A stretch of 49,748 bases of DNA, counting the filler, from Catajapyx aquilonaris (taxonomy: Eukaryota): the NCBI GenBank assembly GCA_000934665.2. It is 2 parts of 2 records of this genome, joined end to end, with 100 filler letters (N's around TTAATTAATTAA, not from the genome) between each part and the next. Parts side by side here need not be neighbours in the genome. Positions count along the whole stretch, not along the records: positions 24,930 to 49,748 come from KZ539354.1; 1 more part is not named here. The stretch is one strand, 5' to 3'. The notes under the pieces are model-generated. The model was not told the DNA's origin and did not search any database. It saw nothing but the letters and a program-made list of their open reading frames with translations. This document shows, piece by piece, positions 24,830 through 49,748 of this stretch. The stretch's first letter is position 1. Each line of letters starts with the position of its first letter. Made by a program: the position numbers and the translations under genes.

Positions 24830-24929
24830 NNNNNNNNNNNNNNNNNNNNNNNNNNNNNNNNNNNNNNNNNNNNTTAATTAATTAANNNNNNNNNNNNNNN
24901 NNNNNNNNNNNNNNNNNNNNNNNNNNNNN
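24830..24929. other. Artificial contig-joining spacer (44 N + TTAATTAATTAA + 44 N)
   Basis: Exactly 100 bp. The central 12-mer (24874-24885) places stop codons in all six frames, a standard concatenation linker. Confidence 0.95.
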
Positions 24930-25010
24930 CCCCCCCTTCATTAAACTTTCGACATTTCATTTGTTACAAACACATTATAACACATTATTGAAAAGAAAAG
25001 AAAAAAAACG

Positions 25011-26517
25011 TTGCCACGGCAACAACGTTCGATCGAAATAAACAAAGGGGAGGCTCACCGCACTCAAGTTGACAACATCTGTCGTGAGATTCTACTTGAG
25101 ACCAATTACAACACCCAAGAACTCATCCAAGAGGTTGCTCTTACTGAACCAAAGTTGCTACCAGATCAGAGATCTGCTTATTCGACAATTGTAGACAATG
25201 TCCAGGGCCAGAAAGGCGGAGTTTTTTTCCTTGATGCACCAGGAGGAACTGGTAAAACATTTGTGACAAATCTGTTGTTGGTAAAAGTTCGTCAGGATCA
25301 ACAAATCGCACTTGCGGTTGCCTCTTCTGGCATAGCATCTACTCTTTTGCCTGGTGGGAGGCCTGCTCATGCAGCATTCAAACTTCCTCTAAATTTAGCT
25401 ACACAGGAAAATGCATCATGCAACATCAGCAAGGGCACCTGGGTGGCACAACTTTTGAGACAGTGCAGGTTAATTGTTTGGGATGAGTGCACCATGTCCC
25501 ACAAAGTAGCTTTTGAAGCTCTGGACAGGACACTGCAGGATATCCGGGAAAGCAAAACGATTATGGGCGGAGTAACTTTGTTTTTGGCTGGGGACTTCAG
25601 ACAGATATTGCCTGTTGTTCCACGAGGCACACAAGCCGATGAGATAAAAGCTTGCCTAAAGTCTTCTTATCTTTGGATTCATGTTCTAAAATTCCATCTC
25701 TCTACGAACATGAGGGCCTATCTCCTTAGCGATTACTCCTCAGAGGAATTTGCACATGACCTCTTGAAATTTTTAGGAAATGGCCAGTTTAGAACCGATG
25801 CCCTAGGAAATGTTGACATGGGATTGATCGGTACAAAGGTGTCCTCTGTCAATGAGTTGAAATTTAAGGTCTTTCCCAATCTTTGCCTCAACTACCAGAG
25901 ACACGGTTGTGTGAGAGAGCAATATTAGCTCCGAAAAACAACACCGTCAATCTTATGAACGCACAACTCCTCAACCAACTACCTGGTCCTTCCCACTGCT
26001 ACAAGTCTGTGGACACAGTCCCAGACGAGACCCAGGTGGTGCACTACCCAACAGAATTCCTTAATTCTCTAGAACCTCCTGGAGCCCCACCTAATTCTCT
26101 CACTTTAAAAATTGGTGCTCCCATTATGCTCATTCGCAGCCTGGATCCACCCCGACTCTGCAATTGGCACTAGACTTGCTGTGAAAACTCTTATGCCTCA
26201 TATTGTCATCCAGGCTACAATTCTCTCGGGATGTAGCAAGGGAGAAGATGTCCACATCCCCAGAATTCCAGTCATCCCGACAGACTTGCCATTTGAGTTC
26301 AGGAGGCTCCAATTTCCTCTAAGGTTCAGCTTCGCCATGTCCATCAATAAGTCTCAGGGGCAAACTTTGAAGGTGGCTGGGCTGCAACTGGAAGAGCCGT
26401 GCTTCTCTCACGGACAGCTGTATGTTGGAGCGTCACGTGTGGGAAGCCCTAACAGTCTATGTTTATGCACCAGATGGGAAAACTAAGAACATTGTGTACA
26501 CCGAAGCCCTAGGCTGA
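25011..26517 (+). pseudogene. Helitron RepHel PIF1-family helicase domain, frameshifted
   Basis: Motifs DAPGGTGKT (Walker A), [69 protein letters not shown] and the C-terminus KTKNIVYTEALG* (stop at 26515-26517). Frameshifts near 25900, 26165 and 26458. Homology begins around 25054. Confidence 0.93.
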
Positions 26518-26996: not shown

Positions 26997-27291
26997 ATAA
27001 TAATTTGTACCCCGTGCTAGAGCCATGGGCTCTCTTAGGGGGGTGGGATACCACCATTTTTTTGGTCTGGAACTCTTCCTTGCATTTTTACTTTTTCTTA
27101 TTGGGGATGGGATAGGGACGGAAGGAAGCGGCTGTGGCCTATTAATTACGGACACGACCCCGGAATTGTCCTGGTGGGACCATGGGAAACCACAGAAAAC
27201 CCCGGTCAGGGTCGGCAGCCTCCGGGATTTGAACCCAGGACCTCCCGATTAGCAGTCGGATACCAAATCCCCTCCGCTACCACTGCTTCGG
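26997..27291 (-). mobile_element. tRNA-derived SINE inserted in the Helitron 3' region
   Basis: B-box GGTTCAAATCCC, central GGTTTTCTGTGGTTTCCC...AGGCCACAGCCGCTTCCTTCC domain and (TTA)n tail. 16-bp TSD TGTATAGCCATAATTA at 26981-26996 and 27292-27307. The empty site is seen in the sister Helitron end near 32680. Confidence 0.9.
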
Positions 27292-35865: not shown

Positions 35866-36143
35866 AACCGAAGCAGTTTGGAGGAGGGGATATGGTGTCC
35901 GACTGCTAATCGGGAGGTCCTGGGATCAAATCCCGTGGCCGGCAACTCTGACCGTGGTTTTCTGTGGTTTCCCACGGTCCTTCCAGGAAAATTCTGGAGT
36001 TGCTTCCGTAATTAATAGGCCACAGCCACTTCCTTCCATACCTATCCTATCCCAAAGAGCACAGTAAAAATGATAGCAAAGAGTTCCAAGCAAAACAAAC
36101 TTCCCCCCTAAAGAGCCGATGGCTGATAACGGGGTATGAATTA

Positions 36144-36214
<71 letters not shown>
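35866..36214 (+). mobile_element. tRNA-derived SINE (same family as 26997-27291) with an expanded (TTA)n tail
   Basis: CCGAAGCAGT...CCGACTGCTAATCGGGAGGTCCTGGGATCAAATCCC head, the same central domain and a long TTA tract. TSD TATTTATAGGAAATTT at 35850-35865 and 36215-36230. Confidence 0.9.
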
Positions 36215-36218
<4 letters not shown>

Positions 36219-37061
36219 TATAGGAAATTTCATTCCAAGCTGTTATTTTTTTTGTAGCTTGTTGTGCTCCTATCAAGGTACCCTATTACATAGCAACTGC
36301 TATATCCGACCATATAAAAGTAATTGGGCACCTGGATCGGGGCATGAAAAGCTACACAAAAATTACTTTGGGTGATATTAGCAACATCTTAAAATGACCC
36401 TGGCTGTTGGAACAATCTCTATACCCCCTCCTCTAAAAGTAGACATGGGTAAAACTAGCCCCATGCAACTCCCACCCTTTCCTTACAGTGACGGAAGAGT
36501 ACTTACAAAGTGTTCGCTGGCGCTGGTGTTGCTCACCGGGGTGATATTGGTTGCCAGGCGAACTCGGGGAAATGCCTCTGAACCAACCCAAACCGTCAAT
36601 ACTCAGTACAGCACACTCAGCCCCCTTCCACAGATTCGCACACAGACACATGAGTGAGTCTGGCAACACGCACGCCCCAGTGAGCGACGCCAGCACCAAA
36701 TTCCAGGCTGGCAAAGACTCTCTAATTAAACTACCATATCGTAGGAATTGGGTAGGTCTGGGTTAAACACAGGACATAGATGAGACACAATGAATTATTA
36801 TCAGGTGCCTGGGTAGGGAATCACGCCCATATGATAGAGAACTCTGTTCCTCTCTTTGCTGACAAGACAAGGGTACCATATTGGAGTATGTTTTACCTTA
36901 TCTCCTTAGGCAACAATACATGCCAGCTCTCTTGAATTAAACTTTGTTCAACAAATGTAACCCTGCCTGTCTTTTCCACTATCAATTCACACCAAAATAC
37001 TGTGCATTACTAGATAAAAGTTGGGATTACAAAAAAGAACACCTCCACCAGTGATACTCAC

Positions 37062-37512
37062 CTAATCATCTGAAGAAAGAAAGAAATTCTTCAGTGGGCG
37101 CAAGATGTACGCTGTCACAAGAGTGCTTGAGGCTCGTAGCATAAGTTTTTTACGTGTTGTCATTGAAAGATCAGACATATCTGCGAGCTGGCTGTTCATA
37201 CCATAGGCTGTGATCATGTCATTATACCATTGCATTGGTTTAACGGTTTTGGATTGTGGATCCAGACAGGCAACAGGATGTGCTGTTGATGGCCCAGGCA
37301 TAGAGAGCATCATGCAGCTAGCGGCTGCATTCATGGCTGCATTCATAGTCTTATTTCCTCCAACAAGGAACTCCTGGCGGGATAGTCGAGCAGTAAGTTT
37401 GTCTGTTGCGAGTGTCGCTTGAAGACCAGGGATGTTGCCCCAAAATGAACGCCCAAAGAAGGTGTTGGGTATGATTCCTGGTTGTAAAGTTACAGGCTCG
37501 CACCCCAGGAAC
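37062..37512 (-). CDS. Dnmt3: DNMT3-like protein, last coding exon (motifs VII-X, degenerate)
   Basis: Acceptor tttctaatgtatag|G (phase 2). Encodes (R)FLGCEPV...FFGRSFWGNIPG...WYNDMITAYGMNSQLADMSDLSMTTRKKLMLRASSTLVTAYILRPLKNFFLSSDD*, aligning to DNMT3A RFLESNPV...HRARYFWGNLPG...[50 protein letters not shown]. Confidence 0.9.
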
Positions 37513-37727
37513 CTATACATTAGAAATACAAAATAAATTTCATGCCTGTGCCAAATACTCTGTCCAATTCCATGCTCTCCTGGAACCCCTGCAATCAAAT
37601 TGTATTGACCTGTATCTCTAAACTGCACAGTAAAACATCATGTAACATTATCCATGACCAGTAATTAAATTGGCATTTAAATGCCGTCATTCTAAGTCAA
37701 AGATATGGCTTGTGAACCCTATGACAC

Positions 37728-37799
37728 GGCTCCCGCCAGGGATCGAACCTGGGTCAACACCTGAATCAAGTGTTTGCTCTGCCACTAAGCTACAAGAAC
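37728..37799 (-). mobile_element. tRNA-like SINE head or tRNA pseudogene in a Dnmt3-like intron
   Basis: A-box TAGCTTAGTGG and B-box GGTTCGATCCC at tRNA spacing; the anticodon arm is degenerate. Confidence 0.55.
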
Positions 37800-38238
37800 G
37801 CTTGCGGGACTAGCCACATCTTTGATTCATGTTACGGAAATTATCCAGTGACTTGTTAAGTAGCAAGTTTAGTGATACTGTCATCAATACAGTCTAAATC
37901 ATATTAAAGGAAAGTATTTTAAAATGCCTAAACAAACGACAAGTGACAATAAATATCTAGTTAAGAATTATTTTATGCAGAAGTGTATAGTGACAACACT
38001 TCAGACTACTTTAAAATGACTGGCACTGCCTAGTTCTCTTAATATTAGTCAACAACCATTTCACAATAACAGGTTAAGCCTTTTGTAACTCAGAAGCTTA
38101 TCATAAGGATCTAGGCATAGGTGACTGGGTTCATAAAGAAAAAGTCTGCAATAACGTAATAATAAATAGTAAGTTCAATTATATTATTAGTGTTGCAGCC
38201 AAGCTACGAGGGCTTGCCTGTGCAAATCCCTGAAAGTA

Positions 38239-39806
38239 CCGTCAAACGGGGGGAAATTGTGCCACTTTTGGAGGTTTTCCTTGCAAGCAAACCACAGTAA
38301 TTGATATATACTATATAGGAACGAATATTTTATACAACATTTCTGCACATCTCACCTTTCAGATCATACGTGAAAATAATATTTACATACTAATGAAGGG
38401 GAGATATAAAATAATTCTTTTCCGTGCCACAATTTCACCCCATCCTTTGGGTGAGATTGGGCCAGCCGGTTTAAATGCTTCAAATAAATAGGAAATGAGT
38501 CATGGCCACACTATCCATAAAAATTAGCATCTTTAATATGCAAAGAAAACATTTTTTGAAACATGGTGCAATTAGTTTAAAAAATGAATGCGATGAGAAG
38601 AGATTGTGCCACTGTTTTTCTCAGTTTTCCCCCATTATTTCCATAATTTTCATGTGCGACAGTGATGGGAAAGGTTGACGTGAAGATCAGTCGGAAGCTT
38701 CGGCAGAAATCATGGCTAGCATGCTGCGATGAAAAAAAAAGTAGATAATTGGATGTGAACAAAGCGATCAGATGAGGAGTACTGCAGCTGGCGCCATGGC
38801 AACAAAAGATAACATTGAACCTGATCAAATTGGAGCTTGAACTGGAGAATAAAATCGGATGGCCAATGTCCTCGAAAATCAAACTAGGTGGAGGAAGGGA
38901 AAAATTAATATAAATGCATTTTTTCATAGGGCATTTTTGCGATAGAGCAGACATGAATCGACAATTTTTTTCTCATTGAATACCGTATTTTATCACACCA
39001 ATCGGATGCTCAACATCTCTACTAAATAATGCCAACCTTAAAATTGCCCAGTGTTGCTGTTCTATGGCACCAGCTGCTCATACGTTCAACTGTGCCTTTT
39101 GGTGTCTGGGGACACACGCGGCTTGTGGTGCCTCTATAATCATTGCCATTCATATGATCACTTCTCCAGCGTGTCTGTTGGATGCAGTTCGATCAGGTTC
39201 GACGTGCTCTTTTGTTGCCGCGACTAGTGGCGCTGTTTGCAATACTCCTTTGGTCACTTCCAATTATCTACTCTTTTTTTCATCGCAGAATGTTGGACTT
39301 GATTTCCTGCAAAGCCTCTCCCCCCCCAATCTTCTTCAGGTAAACTCCTCTCACTACTGTCACACTAGAAAATCAGTGAAATAACGGGAAAAACAGTGGC
39401 ACAATCTCTCCCCTTCAAGTCCCCCTCTATCATTAATTGGGCCATAGCTCAACCACAAGTACAGATTTAAAAAATGTCAACTCGTATTTACTACCTTCAA
39501 TAATGTAGTTAGCGAAATATTAACTTACCTGGTAACAAGAAGCAACCAGCCACTGGCGGCAACCAACACTATACCACTAAGTGCAAAACTTGAAGAAAAT
39601 CAAAATTTCAACAATAATTTATTTTACAGGTCTTATAGCAAGAAATCGCGAATTCTCTTCGTGATTGTCAACATTGAACATTTATCAATGTAATGGAACA
39701 TGCCTAATTTCGTTAGTTTACGCCTGCTGCCAGCAGGCTGCTTTGTCCCAAAAAATGCGCTGGCACAATCTCTCCCCACCTGGCACAATGTCACCCCGTT
39801 TGATAG
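38239..39806. mobile_element. pogo-like non-autonomous DNA transposon (~1.57 kb)
   Basis: TA|CCGTCAAACGGGGGGAAATTGTGCCA ... TGGCACAATGTCACCCCGTTTGATAG|TA, with repeated ATTGTGCCA/TGGCACAAT motifs and an internal inverted pair (~38600-38870 vs ~39150-39410). Confidence 0.8.
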
Positions 39807-39973
39807 TATATGTAGAAGGTATGACAAAAAGGCGACAGAAAAAATTAAATATCACTTCAATAAAAAGTCAATCATGCATGCTCCCTCCTGAACACCCATG
39901 GCACACAGTAAAATAAAAAATTGTTAGATTCACATGAGGATTACCAATAAAGTCATATTGAAAGCTACCTTAG

Positions 39974-40842
39974 CCCTTTGTCTCCCGCGCTATTTTGAAC
40001 TCTTCGGGTGGGGGTTTAAAAAGGGTGCCCTAGGTGAAAATCACTGGATCTGGCACCATTCGCTTCGCTCTCGATTCATGCACAAGAGGGGGCTGAACAT
40101 TGAGAGACATACTAACCTACGCTGCATATTGAGATAGAGCAACAACCGCCTCATAAACTATGCACAAGACGGTGATGTCATCCTATTACATCATCTACGC
40201 AGTTTTTTAAAGGTGGCTTATACCCCTCTAAAAAATCCAAGAAAATTCTATATGGTCCCCCAGTCTCTCTGATTAATTATGAAAGCATTAGTGTCTCAGA
40301 AAAAGAAATTTCAAAGTCCGGTTTAAACAGAGGTAATGTGATACGCAAGATGCAAAAAAGGCGGCTCAGGTGCCAAGCTGGCAACGTCCAGTGCTCGGAG
40401 CAGTCTGCCCGGCCAATTAGGAGCGAGGACACTCTCGACAACCAAAATGGCGCTGGGGAGTTTGCCTACCCTTCACAGATCGTTCTGATTTTTTCCCTGG
40501 TGAAAAGTAAGTCACAGAATTTCAGGAATTTTTTAATAGTTTTCATTTGCACATGCACATACCGGGAAATATGCAGCAGGGAGCTGTGTATATTTAAATT
40601 CGTGCAGTAAGTGTTTGTTTCGGATTGTTTTAAATGAATGAAACCTTTGGCCTATGACGTCGTGCCATTAAAAATATCACGCGAGTGGCGTAAATACTGA
40701 TGAGCGTAGAAACTATGAACATTTCTTAAGGCTACCGGTATGGTGAAAGAAATTTCCGTCGGGTTTATACCAGTGAATTTTTAAACAATATTTTCTTTGG
40801 TTGTATTATAATACAGCCATATTGGCTGCGGAAGACAAAGGG
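39974..40842. mobile_element. piggyBac-like MITE with a TTAG target duplication
   Basis: TTAG|CCCTTTGTCTCCCGC ... GCGGAAGACAAAGGG|TTAG. Confidence 0.65.
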
Positions 40843-42166
40843 TTAGAATATCTACCATCACTGAATCATGATGATGAATGCTCAAAGACGTATGCAGGAT
40901 GTTTCTTACTAGTTGAATAGCTTGCAGCCAGTGTAATTGTGGGCTTAATGAATGTGGGAGTGAAGTAGGTCAAGGGATCAACCAGTAATGAGGTAGATGA
41001 CCAGGCACATTTGCCTACCCCTAGACAGATCTAACAACCTACATTGCAGCCAAAGGCATGAAGAACAGCCCATGAACATGCAGTAATTTCCTCAGTCGTC
41101 AGGGAGCAGAACACCAGTGTGATAATGGGCATTATGTATGAGGAACTATGACTGTGAGGCTGCCTCATGTAGTGACCATTACCACACTCATATCCTGCTC
41201 CCTGCATGTTCATGAGCTGTTCTGCCTGCCTTTGGCAGCAAATAGGGTTGAGGCCTGCGTCAAGGAGTAGGAAGTTGTGTCTGGTAATCTACCTTGTTAC
41301 TGGTTGATCCTTTGACACATCTCACACCTACATTTCAGACTTGCCTTGTGCCAAAAAGTAATCTTGCAGGGAACTTACATATTGTTTGAATCTTGAAAAA
41401 AAATGTTAATATGAGTGTCAGTCGGAAAGTAAGTTGAACTATGCTACAGTTTCGACGCCATGCGACGGGCCGGGTAAGACAAACATGGGCAGAGACGTTG
41501 ATCCTTCCTCTACTTTCTAGGACAGGTAGGTGCCTTCTTGCACCTTATGCGCAGGCGCAGCAGCCGTCGGACGAGAGTGAGCGGCAAGCTGAGCATGCCC
41601 ACCTGTATGTCACCAGAAGTCATGGCAGAGAGACAGTGTTGGTCACATGGACTAATAAGGCAGAAGTTGGGACACTTGAGGACAGTGTCGGTAATTGCCC
41701 TGGCTGGTAGTCCGAGTCTCTGGTTATCCGTCATGCTCGCGAGCTTATTCCGGAATTGCTGGCATCACATTGCCGCACCATTTGCCCAGACATGACAGCT
41801 CCAGACCATACACCTCCACTATCCAGTGATGAATGTCGTATATCATATCTCAAATGTCGACCACTGGGTGGGGCAAGTGCGACACTGTGCACCACGTGCA
41901 CATTGTAATTATTTTTTGGAGCACCCATATAGATGAATGTTATGCAATAGGCCAATTTGAAAGTCAATAAGGTAAGGTATATTGTCCAGTACTTTTCTTT
42001 GTCACTTGCTAATTACTGAGGAAGTAGCATGCCTTTAAAGTGCACCTAATCAAACTCCACACGCACTTGCCCCACTTTACCCTAGTGTATAAATACTAGG
42101 AGGCTTAAGAAGGATTGACTACACCAGGTGAGAGACTCGAGAGTGTATAGGTTTGCAAGTCACTAT

Positions 42167-42308
42167 AAGTCTAATGCCCAATTGCACCAACAAAATTACC
42201 CATCCGATAGCTCCTAATGGATTGTTAGAAGCCCTTTTAATGTGTCCGAACGATCTGTTAGGAGCTATCGCATCGGTAATTTCGTTGGTGCAATCAGGCA
42301 TTAGACTT
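42167..42308. mobile_element. Short hairpin MITE (Harbinger-like)
   Basis: AAGTCTAATGCCCAATTGCACCAACAAAATTACC ... GGTAATTTCGTTGGTGCAATCAGGCATTAGACTT. Confidence 0.75.
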
Positions 42309-43482
42309 GATCATGCATGTGACAGGAGTCATAGATGCATGGGAATAAGGAAATTGACTTACTGTTAGTGAAATGTAGGATAGGAAGTGATTTATGACTC
42401 GAATGTGAATGTGTCAAATTTCAACATTTCAACATTACCAGTTTGTTGGATTTGCATTTCATAAATGGCCCGTTGTTTTATCACTGAATACCTCTTGTTA
42501 GAAAAAAACAAACCATGTTGGTGTTCATTCCACATAGTAACATAAGAGGAAGAGAAAATATTATACTTAAAATGTGGGAATATATATAAATTCACAATTG
42601 AAATATCTTTAAGAAGTTGAAACCTTGCAACTCACAATAACATTAGGGACAAGAGGTGCATTCTGTGGTTACAGCAATAATACTGTGAAATCTTGAAAAC
42701 AGATAAAAGACATTGGGTAGAATTTTCGTCACACTGCTAGATAATCCTAACTTAGCGAGGTTAGCAGTATCTAGCAGTGGGACGAAAATTCGACACTTAG
42801 AATTTGGCATGGGCAAAAGTCTTTCCTCAGAGTGAGTTTTCTGAATTATCAATATGGACTTTTTGTTTCTGGAAACTATAAGCATTGTGCTTGACAATAC
42901 CAAACCGAACAAAAAGTATGGCTTTCAGTAATCGGATGACTACTCCATTTTACTACGACTATTACTGTGTACTTCAGCCAGGAATGGCTTCCCTTTGCTT
43001 CTGTTTAGCACATGTAGAGAGGTATCATATGTGTAGAAAATGCCCCACTTTCTCCACGTCTCCGGTCAATTGTCACTAACTTAACATACACTACCACAAA
43101 AAGTCATGGAGATCTCAGTGACAGTGTATTATTTCTGACAAGGCTGTTTATCATGCTATGTCCACTTACTCCAGCGCAATTCAGGACAAAGTCAGATTCA
43201 TGATTCAATTTCTCGAAAGAAAAAGTAACTAATGGAAATTCAGCTAAACCGAACTCATCTTGCCATCTTACTATAACAAACCTTGCAAATCCAATCCTAA
43301 CTGTAAAGAAGCCTTCTAAAGACATTTGACACATTCAACACTACAATGGGTAAAAAGTTCTTATGCACAATTGTAGTAAAATATTCAGTGCTAAATGCCT
43401 TTAAGTTATGTGAAAAAATTGTTATATTAACAAACTAAGTACCTTCATCACAGCCAACATACCACGGCATATTGCCTCTCAC

Positions 43483-43612
43483 CTCGTGATGTAGGCTTCT
43501 TCTTCGTGCTCCAAAGCCACACATTCAAAGAGCCAATGCAGGTGGTGACCTTCATTTCTGACTTGGACATATCGTAGTATGCGGTAAAACTCTTTGAAGT
43601 TGCACATTATCT
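43483..43612 (-). CDS. Dnmt3: DNMT3-like protein, internal exon (motif V-VI region)
   Basis: tttctttgtttttctcag| ... |gtgaga; 130 nt, phase 1 to phase 2. Encodes (E)IMCNFKEFYRILRYVQVRNEGHHLHWLFECVALEHEEEAYIT(R), compared with DNMT3A [47 protein letters not shown]. Not in the ORF track. Confidence 0.9.
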
Positions 43613-43701
43613 CTGAGAAAAACAAAGAAAACGTTTACTTCCATTGCCAAACGTTATAGGTCAGTGCAGTTTTAGGATGTATGTTTAGAGAAAACATTTT
43701 T

Positions 43702-43809
43702 GTATCAACAGTTCAAAAAGAATTGTCCTGTCGCGTCGAGGTTCCTTTCATCCTGACGCGTGGCTGCCCGCTCGACGCTCAGGGACAATTCTTTTTGAAC
43801 TGTTGATAC
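43702..43809. mobile_element. Hairpin MITE, copy 2 (internally deleted relative to 29734-29879)
   Basis: GTATCAACAGTTCAAAAAGAATTGTCC ... GGACAATTCTTTTTGAACTGTTGATAC. Confidence 0.85.
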
Positions 43810-43834
43810 CTAACATGTACATTTTTTTGTAATG

Positions 43835-45327
43835 CGAGGGGTGTTCAAAAACCGACCCAACTTTTTCTACACATACTCTATTGCGCAATTTGCAGGGGGA
43901 GGTGGAGTGGCACTGCTGTAACATATGAGCCCACAAATGTAAGGGTCCCAGGTTTGATCCCAAGCCCGGGCATTCCCCCCTTCATCTCGCGCAGAGTTGG
44001 GTCATCTCTGACTTCGTCTCAGGTGGGATTCCTCGAGACTAACCACCCGGGGGAGTTCACAAAACAACATTAGCAACGACAATGCATTGCAACTGGCACA
44101 TCCCCTCCCACTCATCCCCTTCGCTCGAGGTACCCGGGTGTTACGGAAAAGGACCAACGTGTACAAGCTTGTAATATCAAAGCAAATGAAGGCCTAGGGA
44201 GAAAAAACGATCAAGGTTCACTTCAGGTGAAACTGAGATAATCCAATTTTAAATTTCAAAGGCCCATAAGGCTCCATTGTAAATCCCACTTTCGGGGTCT
44301 TCCATAGTGACCTATGACCATTACTCAACAAACACGACCAAACCGTAATATTCTACACTAGTGAAAGTATCTTCTGAGATACGTAACTCATTTTTGACAA
44401 AAACTGGACCTNGTCTTCAAATAAAGGTACAGTGCCAGATGCCCAAGAAGGTGCACTAGTACCCAATTATTATTATCGCTCAATTTGCAACATTTAAGCA
44501 CTGTCCCATTCAAAGTAGTTCCCCCTACTGGTGATAGGCAGTTTTTTATTTTTTCTGCCATTGTTGAAATGCTTCCTGGAACGCACTTTCTGTGATGGCG
44601 CGCAGTGCTCTTGTTGCATTGTCCTGAATCGCCTCTATGGTTCAGAAATGACATCATTTCAAATTTGTTTTAAGTTTTGCATATAGCAAAAAGTCTGCTG
44701 GGGCTAAGTCCAGAGAATGGGGTAGTTTGGCACAACGGATGTCTGTTGTTTTGCCATATAACTAATGACGAGGAGCAATGTGTGAGCCGGCGGATTGCCA
44801 TGGCACAATATCCAAGTTTGGCTTTCCCACAATTTACGCCTTTCCTGGGCACAGCATCCCTCAAATGCACTAAGACATTCTGCTACAACACTGTTTGTCT
44901 GCCAATCCGACAACATGGTCCAAATTCATAATGGAAAATGCCTTTCCAATCCAAAAACACAACCATCACCACCTTGACCTTTGACTGACTGACCTCTGCC
45001 TCTTTTGGTCGAAGAGACCCTTCTCAAGTATGCTTGGTAAAGCAATTGAAATGTCTCTGAAAATTTTACCAATTTTTTAGCGAAATTTCACACAAACACG
45101 TTGTTTTTCAAGCTCTCTCATTTTCACATTCTCACTAATTTGACGAACAGCTTGTGTAAGTGCCACTTAAGTGGATGTATCTCGATGACCAATGGTCATA
45201 GCGGAACGTGTCAAATGGCAATTTGTTGTCAAGACATGTTGCTAGGGGCTGTCAGGAGCTGCAATACTCTCTTTGTGCCGGTTGACGCACTATTTAAAAA
45301 GTTCGGTCATTATTTGAACAACCCTCG
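43835..45327 (-). mobile_element. Decayed mariner element with a nested tRNA-SINE-like insertion (from ~43897)
   Basis: TIRs CGAGGGGTGTTCAAAAA..GACC.AACTTTT and AAAAAGTTCGGTCATTATTTGAACAACCCTCG|TA. The minus-strand relic at ~44500-44900 includes WILCHGNPPAH (cf. WLLHHDNAPAH), EAIQDNATRALRAITESAFQEAFQQW and NYFEWD (cf. DYFEGD). Confidence 0.85.
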
Positions 45328-45425
45328 TACACCAGGTAAAAAGCCATTTGTTACAAAATCCACAAGCCCATGCTTTATATCCATATGTGCACCAAACCGC
45401 TGTAAAATAACTACTAATTACTCAC

Positions 45426-45650
45426 CCTTTACGGTTTCAGGTGTCTCTGAGGTAGTGTAGGCTACATTCGCAATGAGGAGGTCAATTCCTCCTAGTTCAT
45501 CAAGTTCCTGTCTGCCAAGCTTCTCAACTGGGCCCAGATTCTGGAGCCTGTCTCCAAATTTCATACTAGCCACACGCAAAGCAATGTCATCGGATTCAGC
45601 AGCAAAATATCTGCGAACCTTCATGCCTAACTGGTCAAGTACATACAGTC
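45426..45650 (-). CDS. Dnmt3: DNMT3-like protein, internal exon (motifs II-IV; catalytic PC motif replaced)
   Basis: ttctttctag| ... |gtgagt; 225 nt, phase 1 to phase 1. Encodes (G)LYVLDQLGMKVRRYFAAESDDIALRVASMKFGDRLQNLGPVEKLGRQELDELGGIDLLIANVAYTTSETPETVK, compared with DNMT3A [76 protein letters not shown]. Confidence 0.92.
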
Positions 45651-46618
45651 CTAGAAAGAAAGAAAAACACGAAAATCAGATTGGGAAAGAGTACAAAAGT
45701 CAGATGGAAGGAGGCAGAAGTGGGAAAAGTGTGACAAAAGAGGGGACAAAATAGTGATTTGGAGCAGGGAAACATTTAGTGGTGCCCAAACCTAACTTTC
45801 CATAGCAGATGTGTGTACAACAATGTAGTAATTTTAACTGCATTAACCTGCTCCTACCTAACCTCCCAACCTAATGAATATATGGGAACATAGTTATTCT
45901 AAAAGAATGCAGTGATGTTAAACTACATAACCTGACCTACCCAACCTCTAAAATCTAATAGTTACATGACAATGTAGTTAAATTAATTTACACTACCCTA
46001 CGTCCTAAATTAACTTTTGGGAACAAAGACACACATGAAAGTTACAATTAATCCAATTTATTTACACACATAACACCATAACAATAATGAAAAAGAATGC
46101 TACCAGACTGCAACCAGCTGGAAATTATTGCCCTGGTCCTCAATTAATCAGTATTGGTATTGCTGCATTTGCATCCCACTTACAAGGGAATCTCATGAGG
46201 TGCCACTCGAAGTACATGTTACAATTGTGTTTTTCAGGTTCCTGGTCTGCTGGAAAGAAAATACCTTTCCGGAAAAATCATCAATTTGAACAGTTTTTGA
46301 GATCCAGGGGTCCAAAGTGTAAAAATCGAACACTTTATGAAGGCCTGAGGAAGTCCAAGTCACTATCTTAAAACTCCTTTTGCATCCTCAGTCCCTTTCA
46401 TAGACTGTTCAATTTTTAGCTTTGGACCCTCATATCTAAAAAAAAACTCTGCCGTTCAAGGGTTTTTCCAGGAAGGTGTTTTCTTGCTAGTAGATAAGAG
46501 ACCCAAAAAGCATAATTATTCCCATCACCATGACAGGACAGACCAGTGCTGAAAGCAAGTCTCACAATTGCCAGTTTAAAGGATAAAATTATCTGAGCAC
46601 GAAAATAAAACTTGTCTA

Positions 46619-47057
46619 CAGGGTGTCCGTGAACCGACCAGTCAGACCTGTACCCGTGGCTCAATTGAGACCAGAGGATCATGTTATGTAGAGGAGTCAT
46701 TATGTCTGGGCAACCTCATTAAGGAGATAATTATTGATCATTTGCAATTTAGCGATTTGCCCTAAGAGTGATTGTCAAAGAGCAGTGGCAAGTGCGTGTG
46801 GGTGAGTGTCAATGTGTGCTGGTGTGAGAATGTGACATGCTGGTATCCAAATGGAAAAGCTGCTATTATTTGACCGGTGATGCGATTTCGTGGCTGAAGG
46901 TTTCCATACTTCCCAGGATACTCTGTACTTGTAGTTTGAAGGCGATTATCTCAGTAATGAGGCTGCCCAGACATAATGACTCCTCTACATAACATGATCC
47001 TCTCGTGTCATTTAAGCCACGGGTACAGGTCTCACTGGTCGGTTCCCGAACACCCTG
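46619..47057. mobile_element. Tc1/mariner-type MITE with ~105-bp TIRs
   Basis: TA|CAGGGTGTCCGTGAACCGACCAGT...GAGGATCATGTTATGTAGAGGAGTCATTATGTCTGGGCA and its inverse, ending CACCCTG|TA. Confidence 0.85.
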
Positions 47058-47144
47058 TATAATTTGCTTCTACCAGGTTATGTGTAGCCTACTATACTCT
47101 GAGTGGAGCTAGCCTTGTTCAGACTATCCCTTCATATCATCAGC

Positions 47145-47179
<35 letters not shown>

Positions 47180-47317
47180 TCAAGGCAGCCTTCCCCTGAC
47201 CAAGACGTGGACTCTAGCCTCAGATTAAATACCAATAGGGGAAAAAAGTACATAAATGACACAGTGATTCACATATAAAATCCCACACCTGGCTGTAATC
47301 TTGAATCACACTATAGG

Positions 47318-48409
47318 CAGCGGTTCCTCGACAATGCACGTCTGGCACCTCCCACTTTTCACATTTCCACAAACAACTCCTGGTTGCCAGATGGCAAAAG
47401 TGATGTTTTTGAAAGAATGTTGTTACTTTATAAAACAATGACATACAAAAGAGCATCATATCTTAATAGTCCGGGCCCTAAGAGCAAAAATCAGGCCTAA
47501 CCTTGCACTTTGTGATAAGAAGGTGCCACTTGGCACATATGTTCTCTAGGCCTATAGGTGCAATTCCAGAGTTGCAGGCAACTGATCGGCCCCTTAGGTC
47601 ACGAGTTATGCGGTGTTGCCAACATGGCCCGGGATGAGCTGAGCGTTTTTAACGTTGCATTTTGTGATAAGAAGGTACCACTTGGCACATATAGTATATG
47701 TTCCCTAGGTCTGCAGGAGTCGTTTGAGAGATGGCGGCACTTGATCGGCTCCTTAGGTCAGGAGTTATGCGGTGTTGTCAACCTGATCAGGGAAATAAGC
47801 GTTTTAACTCGGCACTTTGTGATAGGAAGGTGCCACTTGGCAGACATGTTCCCTAGGTGTATAGGATCCATTTGAGAGATGGCAGCACTTGATCCGCTCC
47901 TTAGGTCAGGAGTTATGCGGTGTTGCCAACCTGGTCCGGAACCTAAGCATAACCGCATAACTCGTGACCTAAGGGGCAGATCAGGTGCCGCCAACTCTCA
48001 AATGGAACCTCTAGGCCTGGGGAACATGCTTGCCAAAATCCCAAAATGCAAAGTTAAAAATGGTTCAAAATGCTTAGGTCCAGGACCAGGTTGGCAACAC
48101 CTCATAACTCCTGACCTAAGGAGCCGATCAAGTGCCGCCATGTCTCAAACGACTCCTACAGACCTAGGGAACATATGTGCCAAGTGGCACCTTCTTATCA
48201 CTAAGTGCAAGGTTAAGACGCTTAGAGCCCGGTCTATAATATGAATTGACATATGAAAAGCACAATCACCCTGAATATTTCCTTTGCTGATGTAATGTTT
48301 TAAATCAGATAAGTTTCGCTTCACATAATACCCTCACTTTCTCCTTGGAGCATTGTTGGATATTTGAGAAGTGGGAGGTGCCAGATGTGCATTCTCGGGG
48401 AAACCGCTG
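47318..48409. mobile_element. hAT (Charlie-like) MITE hosting a nested element
   Basis: CAGCGGTTCCTCGACAATGCACGTCTGGCACCTCCCACTT / AAGTGGGAGGTGCCAGATGTGCATTCTCGGGGAAACCGCTG; degenerate 8-bp flanks ACTATAGG and GTTATAGC. Confidence 0.65.
47467..48236. mobile_element. Academ-like non-autonomous element with tandem and inverted ~150-bp internal units
   Basis: TAA|TAGTCCGGGCCCTAAG ... CTTAGAGCCCGGTCTA|TAA (TAG start, 3-bp TSD). Three direct and two inverted copies of GTGATAAGAAGGTGCCACTTGGCACATATGTTC...CCTTAGGTCAGGAGTTATGCGGTGTTGCCAAC. Confidence 0.65.
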
Positions 48410-48954
48410 GTTATAGCACTTGCCATGAGACAATTTCGAAAGCAAAGAGCACTTCATGGTCAGTCATGTACTCTGCTACTGTTAAGTGTCAAATGGTGGT
48501 GGCTTTAATTTAGAAAATGTCTACCATTATTGCATCATGTCACATGCATTATATGAGTGTGTTTTCTTGAAGGATTAACTTGCTCATACACTGTGTGGCA
48601 AACCGAAATAACTTTCTCGTTGTTACAAGTCCCTACTACGTACATGTATTATCCGTTATCTCACTTAAAGCAGCATGCCGGTGTAGTAAAGGTCGACCAG
48701 TTTTTAGAAATTCACAATCTGGTGGCTATATCGGCATGCCTACGCAAGGTATGCTGGTATAAGGTGAGGTTTTCTTACGATCTCTATGAAAATTATTATT
48801 ACTCAAATGAATGTATTACACCATGTTCTACAGTACGGATACAGCCCAGGACACTTCTATTGCCTGACACATCCCATAAGATTGTTCACTAAGTTCAAAT
48901 ACGGCAACATTTTCCATTAAAAGTGGAAAGCTGCTAGAAGGGAAGCATACATAC

Positions 48955-49186
48955 CAGGATATTTCATACGTTTGGTTTGGATTTTATTATTATTTGAGTG
49001 ACGAGGCTTCTCAGACAAATTGATACCACTACGCAAAGTGATCCTCTGATTGCCAAAGAGATCTGCGACCAGCGAACTATTGATAGCAAAACGAAGGACT
49101 GAAGGAATTTGTCTGGATCCTTTGTAATGTTTAGGGGGTTCCCCTCTCAGAGCAGGCTGAATGTGAGATTGGTCACACTCTATGCC
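48955..49186 (-). CDS. Candidate upstream exon of the Dnmt3-like gene (linker-like, no recognisable domain)
   Basis: tctgttgcacag| ... |gtatgt; 232 nt open frame GIECDQSHIQPALRGEPPKHYKGSRQIPSVLRFAINSSLVADLFGNQRITLRSGINLSEKPRHSNNNKIQTKRMKYP(G), ending in phase 1 and so compatible with the 45650 acceptor. No homology recognised. Confidence 0.4.
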
Positions 49187-49640
49187 CTGTGCAACAGATG
49201 AACTTGCATAATATTCTCACAGCCCTGTACTTGCACATTTTTCACTGGAACATAATTATAGTACAGTATCAGATGCATTCCAAAAAATTTGACAAGGATA
49301 GAAATTATAGATATCTACCTCGGGTATTGCGGCATGCCGGCCACCCCCGGGTTATACTGGCATGCTGGTCGACCTTGTTTTATACCGGCATGCCTCTTTA
49401 ACCCCTTCGCTACCAGATATGCCCGAACCACACAGATTTCGGCTTACGCGTACTCCGAAGATACTGACAAGATATTTTACAAATAATAATAACCGCTATA
49501 CTTACTAGATCTGGGAAAACGCTGTGAATGTGTCTGGAACAATTTTACTTGTCTAGAAGTCACTGAATTAATTTCCAAAAAGGGGCTATAAAAACTCGAA
49601 ATTGGAGTACTGCCTACCAACTGTTAGGCTTATTTAATAA

Positions 49641-49748
49641 CTAGCAGCGGCACCCGTTCTTCGCACGGGGAAAAAAAGAGCGTGGATAATTACTCCGAAA
49701 TCTTCTCAGATCTCAGGCAATATTAAATGCAAAACTGCTCATTCCATT
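49641..49748 (-). mobile_element. Helitron-type 3' end running off the window
   Basis: Minus strand CCCGTGCGAAGAACGGG hairpin followed by TGCCGCTGCTAG|T. Confidence 0.7.

Follow-up and report, generated by a model that had tools for sequence, protein, structure and literature searches.

The minus strand of a 49,748-nucleotide stretch of DNA from Catajapyx aquilonaris (assembly GCA_000934665.2; we call this whole stretch the window) carries, between positions 37062 and 45650, three exons that together make up one collinear homologue of the DNMT3 catalytic domain and reach the normal C-terminus of the family. What is seen belongs to a protostome gene of the DNMT3 family that has diverged very far; it extends from motif II as far as the natural C-terminus, and nearly all catalytic motifs, including the Pro-Cys nucleophile, are lost. 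With a probability of about 0.55, somewhat better than even, we read this locus as the 3′ part of a genuine DNMT3 paralogue that is specific to its lineage, has no catalytic function and has been kept as a coding gene. The locus had come to attention through an earlier reading of the DNA alone (hereafter the original prediction), which proposed an intact but catalytically dead, DNMT3L-like pseudo-methyltransferase in an invertebrate.

Three pieces stand out among the stop-to-stop open reading frames (ORFs) of the minus strand, and their borders can be read in the DNA. Exon 1 as seen (45650-45426, 225 nt) follows a pyrimidine tract and the acceptor ttctttctag, is entered in phase 1, and ends at the donor G/gtgagt (the slash marks the border between exon and intron). 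It encodes motif II as YFAAE, with the Glu kept, the motif III region as LGPVE, and a remnant of motif IV. Intron 1 (43613..45425, 1813 nt, GT..AG) separates it from exon 2 (43612-43483, 130 nt), which lies between the acceptor tttttctcag and the donor GAG/gtgaga and encodes a shortened catalytic loop, the helix FKEFYRIL, and the motif VI remnant WLFECV. After intron 2 (37513..43482, 5970 nt, GT..AG), exon 3 (37512-37062, 451 nt including the TAG stop at 37064-37062; acceptor atgtatag) supplies FFGR, FWGNIPG, a degenerate target-recognition region, the motif X remnant LMLRAS, and the C-terminal PLKNFF.

All six splice sites of the three exons match the consensus, and the phases agree. Exon 1 opens on the second base of a codon and closes after the first base of another, exon 2 supplies the two missing bases and leaves two, and exon 3 supplies one. 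Joined, the exons comprise 806 nt, made up of 2 nt of a split codon, 267 codons with no internal stop, and the stop codon, which falls at the same place as the stop of canonical DNMT3 genes. Thus, the coordinates, exon lengths (225, 130 and 451 nt), GT-AG sites and uninterrupted in-phase frame of the original prediction were all correct when read in the DNA. The stop codon of exon 3 stands directly before a consensus 5′ splice site (TAG/GTGAGT, 37056-37064, minus strand), which may mark an intron in the 3′ untranslated region or be a coincidence. The nearest AATAAA on the minus strand lies ~0.9 kb downstream of the stop, at 36147-36152; as the count of such sites in the window is at chance level, its presence is uninformative.

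To place the three exons within the family, we compared the spliced peptide with a profile of 303 positions built from 39 canonical DNMT3 catalytic domains. The peptide matched as a single domain with 148.8 bits (E 1e-44), and the best score among 1000 shuffled versions of it was 5.7 bits. The match spans profile positions 27-295 and peptide positions 2-265; positions 1-26, which include motif I, are not encoded by the three exons, and the statement that the frame aligns end to end with the catalytic domain therefore needs correction. When 11 DNMT3 proteins were used as tblastn queries, the three exons were matched collinearly and nothing else in the window was, with identities of 38-47% for exon 1 and 46-57% for exon 2, which was placed exactly between exons 1 and 3.

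Searches with single exons agreed with this assignment where the query was long enough. Exon 3 alone (149 amino acids) retrieved 30 distinct sequences from the PDB at E up to 10. Chains of DNMT3A, 3B or 3C accounted for 26 of them, with E values from 2.9e-7 to 5.5e-5, and three more were DNMT3B chains (two labelled as isoforms 3 and 7) that cover only the first 31 residues of the exon; the remaining match, to a P450, is a chance one. With exon 1 (74 amino acids), 34 PDB sequences were found, and the top 29 were DNMT3 chains (E 0.002-0.075). Exon 2 (42 amino acids) is too short a query and gave only caspase-3 rows with E of at least 1.5, which we attribute to chance. None of the three single-exon peptides had any Pfam family at E up to 1, PF00145 included, since the pieces are short and diverged. 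A search with exon 3 for longer homologous proteins returned none among 209 candidates at E up to 0.001, and an ESM Atlas search with the same exon gave no usable match.

We next consider which residues of the active site are left. The spliced peptide was aligned with the 39 canonical domains, and columns were numbered by the 912-residue lizard DNMT3A (P0088), whose numbering we take to be equal to that of human DNMT3A; those residue numbers of the original prediction that occur in our conservation table all fit it, D686 not being in the table. Conservation reaches 90% or more in 67 columns, and the peptide retains 30 of them. Motif IV, GGSPCN in canonical enzymes, is represented by ANVAYT (45454..45471, minus strand), with the replacements G706A, G707N, S708V, P709A and C710Y, so that the catalytic Cys has become a Tyr (codon TAC, 45459-45457). 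D712, N717, P718 and R720 are also lost, and the catalytic loop is seven columns shorter than in the arthropod enzymes, three Gly/Leu columns having been deleted with it. By comparison, the Pro-Cys motif pattern was matched by 128 of 130 retrieved DNMT3 proteins, the other two having SPC followed by V or A.

Other motifs have suffered to differing degrees. Motif VI reads ECV for ENV (43518..43526, minus strand), with E756 and V758 kept and N757 replaced by Cys. In the motif VIII region (37425..37460, minus strand), FFGR (37460-37449) stands for HRAR, with R790 replaced by Phe and R792 kept, and is followed by the conserved FWGNIPG (37445-37425). The DNA-contact loop of the target-recognition region (TTRSNS type) is unrecognisable, with T834A and T835S; motif X is LMLRAS for LLGRSW (G890L, W893S); H873, Y874 and T875 of the HYTD stretch are lost; and F732 is a Lys. 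Kept are E664, E756, V758, R792, F794-N797 and P799 (FWGN.P), D876, R885, F731 and F772, as are several core Leu, Phe and Trp residues, and the segments IDLLI, WLFE, FWGNIPG and PLKNFF are retained. The alignment thus bears out the losses in motifs IV, VI, VIII and X and in the target-recognition loop that had been called from the DNA, together with the retained segments. The replacement of GD686V by GPV is likewise present, but it is not diagnostic of inactivation, because LGPVE also occurs in the Pro-Cys-intact DNMT3 of the tick Ixodes persulcatus (P0005) and the D686 column is variable among arthropods.

In C5-methyltransferases the Pro-Cys nucleophile is indispensable for catalysis. Since it is lost here, the domain can safely be inferred to be catalytically dead, and the protein would be unable to methylate cytosine. 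The claim that the domain lacks the residues needed for C5 methylation is thus supported by the motif table.

We then asked how far the sequence has diverged from its relatives. Using HMMER with exon 3 against 1.84 billion cluster representatives, we found nine proteins at E up to 0.001, with identities of 24-30%, and none at E up to 1e-10, so that neither a close orthologue nor the protein itself is in this collection. Seven of the nine are named (a millipede, an amphioxus, an annelid, two ticks, a fish and a mussel), and two are unnamed Logan records. PF00145 is present in eight of the nine and ADD and PWWP domains in most; they are ordinary DNMT3 enzymes. The best of them for exon 3 was from the millipede Chamberlinius (P0001, E 1.1e-6). 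Over the whole domain, identity to the 39 canonical sequences was 22-36%, with the highest value for the tick Rhipicephalus microplus (P0083, 94 of 261 positions), whereas canonical domains are ~50% identical to the millipede query.

In a maximum-likelihood tree of 40 rows (LG+G4), which had no DNMT3L row, the end branch of the window sequence measured 3.23 changes per site, compared with a median of 0.34 and with 0.06-0.5 for canonical arthropod examples. The sequence fell inside the protostome group (support 82/89), although so long a row is not reliably placeable and the bootstrap is not settled. Canonical arthropod DNMT3 proteins (P0083, P0001 and P0005) are the best sequence matches to the window domain, and the ticks share YVLDQ.G, LGPVE and GHHL with it. 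The differences are that the canonical arthropod proteins keep GSPC, ENV, R.R.FWGN, TTRSNS and LLG[RK].WSVP.

Two proteins retrieved along the way deserve mention. The partial I. persulcatus protein P0005 starts at the very column where exon 1 starts, which hints at a shared intron position, and it carries a 21-residue insert resembling a retained intron. In Tachypleus tridentatus, P0017 (DNMT3B-like isoform X5) is a second horseshoe-crab DNMT3 paralogue that keeps Pro-Cys and ENV and has a degenerate DNA-contact loop and LLAKAW instead of LLG[RK].W; to judge by these residues, it may be a partly degenerate DNMT3 paralogue in another chelicerate.

Whether such divergence could have accrued without selection was examined by simulating neutral decay, with random substitutions only placed in the coding sequence and 4000 replicates for each value of K. 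At K = 0.1, the frame was still open in 309 of the 4000 replicates, with amino-acid identity to the start of 80%. The corresponding figures were 40 replicates and 65% at K = 0.2, seven replicates and 54% at K = 0.3, and no replicates and 37% at K = 0.5. A fall from the typical 50-55% identity to the observed ~30% amounts to a drop to ~54% of the start. Moreover, the differences in length from canonical arthropod domains (-7, -1, -2 and +5 residues) are all in frame. Base composition also differs among codon positions (chi2 24.2, p 5e-4), and the maximum of this measure in 500 samples of equal length from intron 2 was 14.0.

Retention of residues follows their conservation, as the peptide keeps 30 of 67 highly conserved columns, 40 of 107 intermediate columns and 16 of 97 variable ones. 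Within the conserved columns, those with a hydrophobic consensus were kept more often (16 of 25) than the others (14 of 42; Fisher p 0.022), and the losses concentrate on polar, catalytic and DNA-contact residues rather than on the hydrophobic core. This pattern reads as the signature of a protein whose fold has been kept and whose chemistry has been dropped. Since the frame has stayed open along a branch of 3.23 changes per site, which neutral decay almost never allows, the sequence probably evolved as a coding, non-catalytic paralogue.

In the window the 5′ part of the gene is missing. Exon 1 is entered in phase 1 and so must be preceded by another coding exon; the alternative, that translation starts at a Met nine codons into exon 1, is speculative. 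The tblastn search with 11 DNMT3 proteins found no upstream DNMT3 exon on the minus strand of 45651-49748 nor elsewhere in the window. A profile of PWWP, ADD and motif I (394 positions, 70 sequences) run against the six-frame translation of the window matched exon 1 only, with no ADD or PWWP domain. We also scanned the 2077 phase-compatible GT donors in the window for a motif I exon with a position-specific scoring matrix, and the top score was 18.1 of a possible 60. The top candidate, SRVMRLCLGSGPG (donor at 47930), lies upstream on the right strand and was rejected because it sits inside a 148-bp tandem repeat and has a poor donor (G/GTTGGC). A first intron of more than 4.1 kb is plausible, since the other two measure 1.8 and 6.0 kb, and motif I and the N-terminal domains may be encoded past the edge of the window. 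Nevertheless, the gene cannot be called intact, as had been proposed: the window holds only the part from motif II to the C-terminus, and 45651-49748 yielded no exon for motif I, ADD or PWWP.

The DNA around and between the exons contains several repeats and relics. The 148-bp tandem repeat (47505..47948, no strand assigned; 2.9 copies, 77% matches) occupies the upstream flank, inverted copies related to it reach ~48250, and similar units on the opposite strand account for recurring ORF scraps. Intron 1 holds one N and transposase-like ORF scraps (~44657-45023, minus strand), which by eye may resemble a mariner/Tc1-type transposase towards its end; none of three matched a Pfam family. ARAGORN reported two tRNA-like sequences, at 37728-37799 and 27214-27286 (both minus strand), given as Asn with the unusual anticodon ATT and Ser with GCT. 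That at 37728-37799 lies in intron 2, ~200 nt upstream of the acceptor of exon 3, and could be a repeat derived from a tRNA instead of a gene. A long (ATT/AAT)n microsatellite at 36100-36220, ~0.9 kb downstream of the stop, reads as poly-Ile or poly-Leu in ORFs. At 24981-26483 on the plus strand, just after the N run beginning at 24830 and ~10.6 kb from exon 3, lies a frameshifted relic of a PIF1-like helicase (PF05970, E 6.4e-64, plus a Pif1 2B domain), split over three reading frames, which looks like a decayed Helitron-type or PIF1 element.

Several of these observations weigh against a maintained gene. An upstream exon is required, yet motif I and all N-terminal domains were not found in the 4.1 kb upstream. 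The surroundings are gene-poor and repeat-rich, as a Pfam family was found in only 2 of 108 ORFs of at least 85 amino acids, and both belong to the PIF1 relic. No relative with more than 30% identity to exon 3 was present among the 1.84 billion representatives, which gave no sign that other species keep the gene. Finally, the simulation leaves room for a copy whose inactivation is recent (K well below 0.1). It is possible, though we think it rather unlikely, that the locus is such a copy, a recently inactivated or partial duplicate of an already diverged non-catalytic DNMT3 paralogue elsewhere in the genome. As a truncated segmental duplicate, or as a fragment moved by a transposon (for example, the neighbouring Helitron-type element), it would have inherited its open frame from the parent. 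The lack of motif I, ADD and PWWP exons upstream fits this explanation, as do the phase 1 start of exon 1, the repeat-rich setting (PIF1 relic, 148-bp satellite, and tRNA-like element in intron 2), and a short neutral phase, with K below ~0.05. It is harder to reconcile with six good splice sites and 267 codons free of stops and frameshifts; the sizes of the two known introns make a long first intron plausible, and neither the exon 3 peptide nor that of exon 1 found a look-alike when searched against the indexed part of the genome.

The remaining explanations are far less probable. If the locus were an ancient pseudogene of a canonical active DNMT3 in neutral decay, this would account for the loss of nearly all catalytic motifs, the very long branch and the failure to find an orthologue. 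However, a fall from ~50% to 22-36% identity leaves the frame open in at most 7 of 4000 simulations, with indels not yet counted, and every change in length preserves the frame, conserved and hydrophobic positions have been retained preferentially, and codon periodicity persists, so we regard this origin as improbable. The contention of the original prediction that the locus is a selected pseudo-enzyme rather than a decaying pseudogene thus stands with respect to old decay, through the simulation, the in-frame changes and the retention pattern, but not with respect to a recent dead or partial copy, which is still a rival. A methyltransferase that is still active, with unconventional residues or on another substrate, is even less probable: E664, E756, R792 and FWGN are kept, but neither the shortened catalytic loop (ANVAYT for GGSPCN) nor its vicinity has a Cys, G890, W893 and the DNA-contact loop are lost, and the Pro-Cys nucleophile is indispensable. 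Chance similarity or an assembly artefact is scarcely credible, given the E value of 1e-44 against shuffled scores of at most 5.7 bits and three collinear pieces with phase-compatible consensus splice sites; in its favour are only isolated N characters in the window, one of them in intron 1.

The pseudo-enzyme reading is, on the sequence at hand, the best one. According to it, most of the roughly tenfold excess of divergence would have accrued in a translated gene on which selection maintained a folded protein with no catalysis, and the protein would work, or would have worked, with no transfer of methyl groups. It could serve an active DNMT3 as a structural partner, on the model of DNMT3L or DNMT3B3, or it could be a methylation-independent chromatin factor, on the model of Daphnia DNMT3.1. 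We take F731/F772 and D876/R885 to be the two subunit interfaces of DNMT3A, with D876/R885 at the dimer interface. As F731, F772, D876 and R885 are retained in the aligned peptide and F732 is a Lys, the idea of a partner would be left open without being supported. More tentatively, a small family of dead DNMT3 paralogues with full-length domains may have arisen in this lineage separately from Daphnia DNMT3.1 and from mammalian DNMT3L, its members acting as subunits with no catalysis of their own or as regulators of chromatin.

Dead relatives of DNMT3, such as DNMT3L, DNMT3B3, Daphnia DNMT3.1 and plant DRM3, shape the site or strength of methylation or act without methylation. If our reading is true, the locus would be an independently diverged arthropod example, indicating that the dead-DNMT3 route has been taken repeatedly; if the lineage has a dead family of its own, the recruitment of dead DNMT3 copies would be a recurrent solution in animals. 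As the full-length fold is retained together with D876 and R885, the protein would also be a natural variant for asking which DNMT3 surfaces matter after catalysis is lost. The gain is modest, as the gene model is incomplete and the concept has already been published for crustaceans.

Proteins of this kind are known already from a crustacean and from mammals. Mammalian DNMT3L, of a type known only from vertebrates, has a truncated domain that lacks the target-recognition region and the final motifs. Like DNMT3L, the window protein would be a catalytically dead member of the DNMT3 family, and it partly keeps what are presumably the Phe-Phe interface residues (F731 and F772 kept, F732 a Lys). 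Unlike that of DNMT3L as defined above, its domain has its full length and runs collinearly up to the normal C-terminus. The PDB matches of exons 3 and 1 list DNMT3A, 3B and 3C but no DNMT3L chain. Judged by the full-length domain, its position among protostome DNMT3 proteins and these PDB matches, the window gene is not a DNMT3L, and the label DNMT3L-like holds by analogy only.

DNMT3B3 offers another comparison, as it is an inactive DNMT3 found beside active subunits in solved complexes (for example, PDB 9e00). It arises from an active gene as a splice isoform that carries a deletion, whereas the window locus is a separate gene with point-wise loss of motifs; the DNMT3B3 PDB chain matches only residues 1-31 of exon 3 (E 0.022). 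In plants, Arabidopsis DRM3 is described, in the available text of the report, as a catalytically mutated paralogue needed by DRM2 (PMC2965745). DRM3 is a dead DNMT3-type paralogue retained as a cofactor, as the window protein may be, but it belongs to the plant lineage and has a rearranged domain order, and the likeness is a functional analogy only.

Among the papers found by a full-text search on catalytically inactive DNMT3 in arthropods, only the Daphnia work treats such a paralogue, to judge by the titles and with two general surveys of DNMT evolution left aside. A survey of DNMTs in Ecdysozoa makes, in its available text, no mention of pseudogenes, duplication or DNMT3 paralogues (PMC8821070). 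Daphnia magna DNMT3.1 is described in the available part of its report as lacking five of the six methyltransferase motifs, with motif VI alone left; it is likened there to DNMT3L, and a CRISPR mutant has altered life-history traits under starvation (PMC8016896). With this protein already characterised, at least as far as that text goes, a non-catalytic DNMT3 is no novelty among invertebrates. A 2025 preprint, in the portion available, calls DNMT3.1 non-functional, reports its expression above that of the active enzymes, and gives it PWWP and ADD domains (10.1101/2024.06.27.600920). No DNMT3.1-type protein was among the nine representatives matched by exon 3, and close kinship was not detectable there. 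Like the window protein, DNMT3.1 is presumed to be either a partner of the DNMT3L kind or a regulator that works independently of methylation. According to the two Daphnia papers, its gene is complete and expressed and includes PWWP and ADD domains, whereas the window locus is a 3′ part read from DNA. Compared by description, however, the two are alike in having a methyltransferase domain without most of its motifs in which motif VI survives, here through its Glu (ECV).

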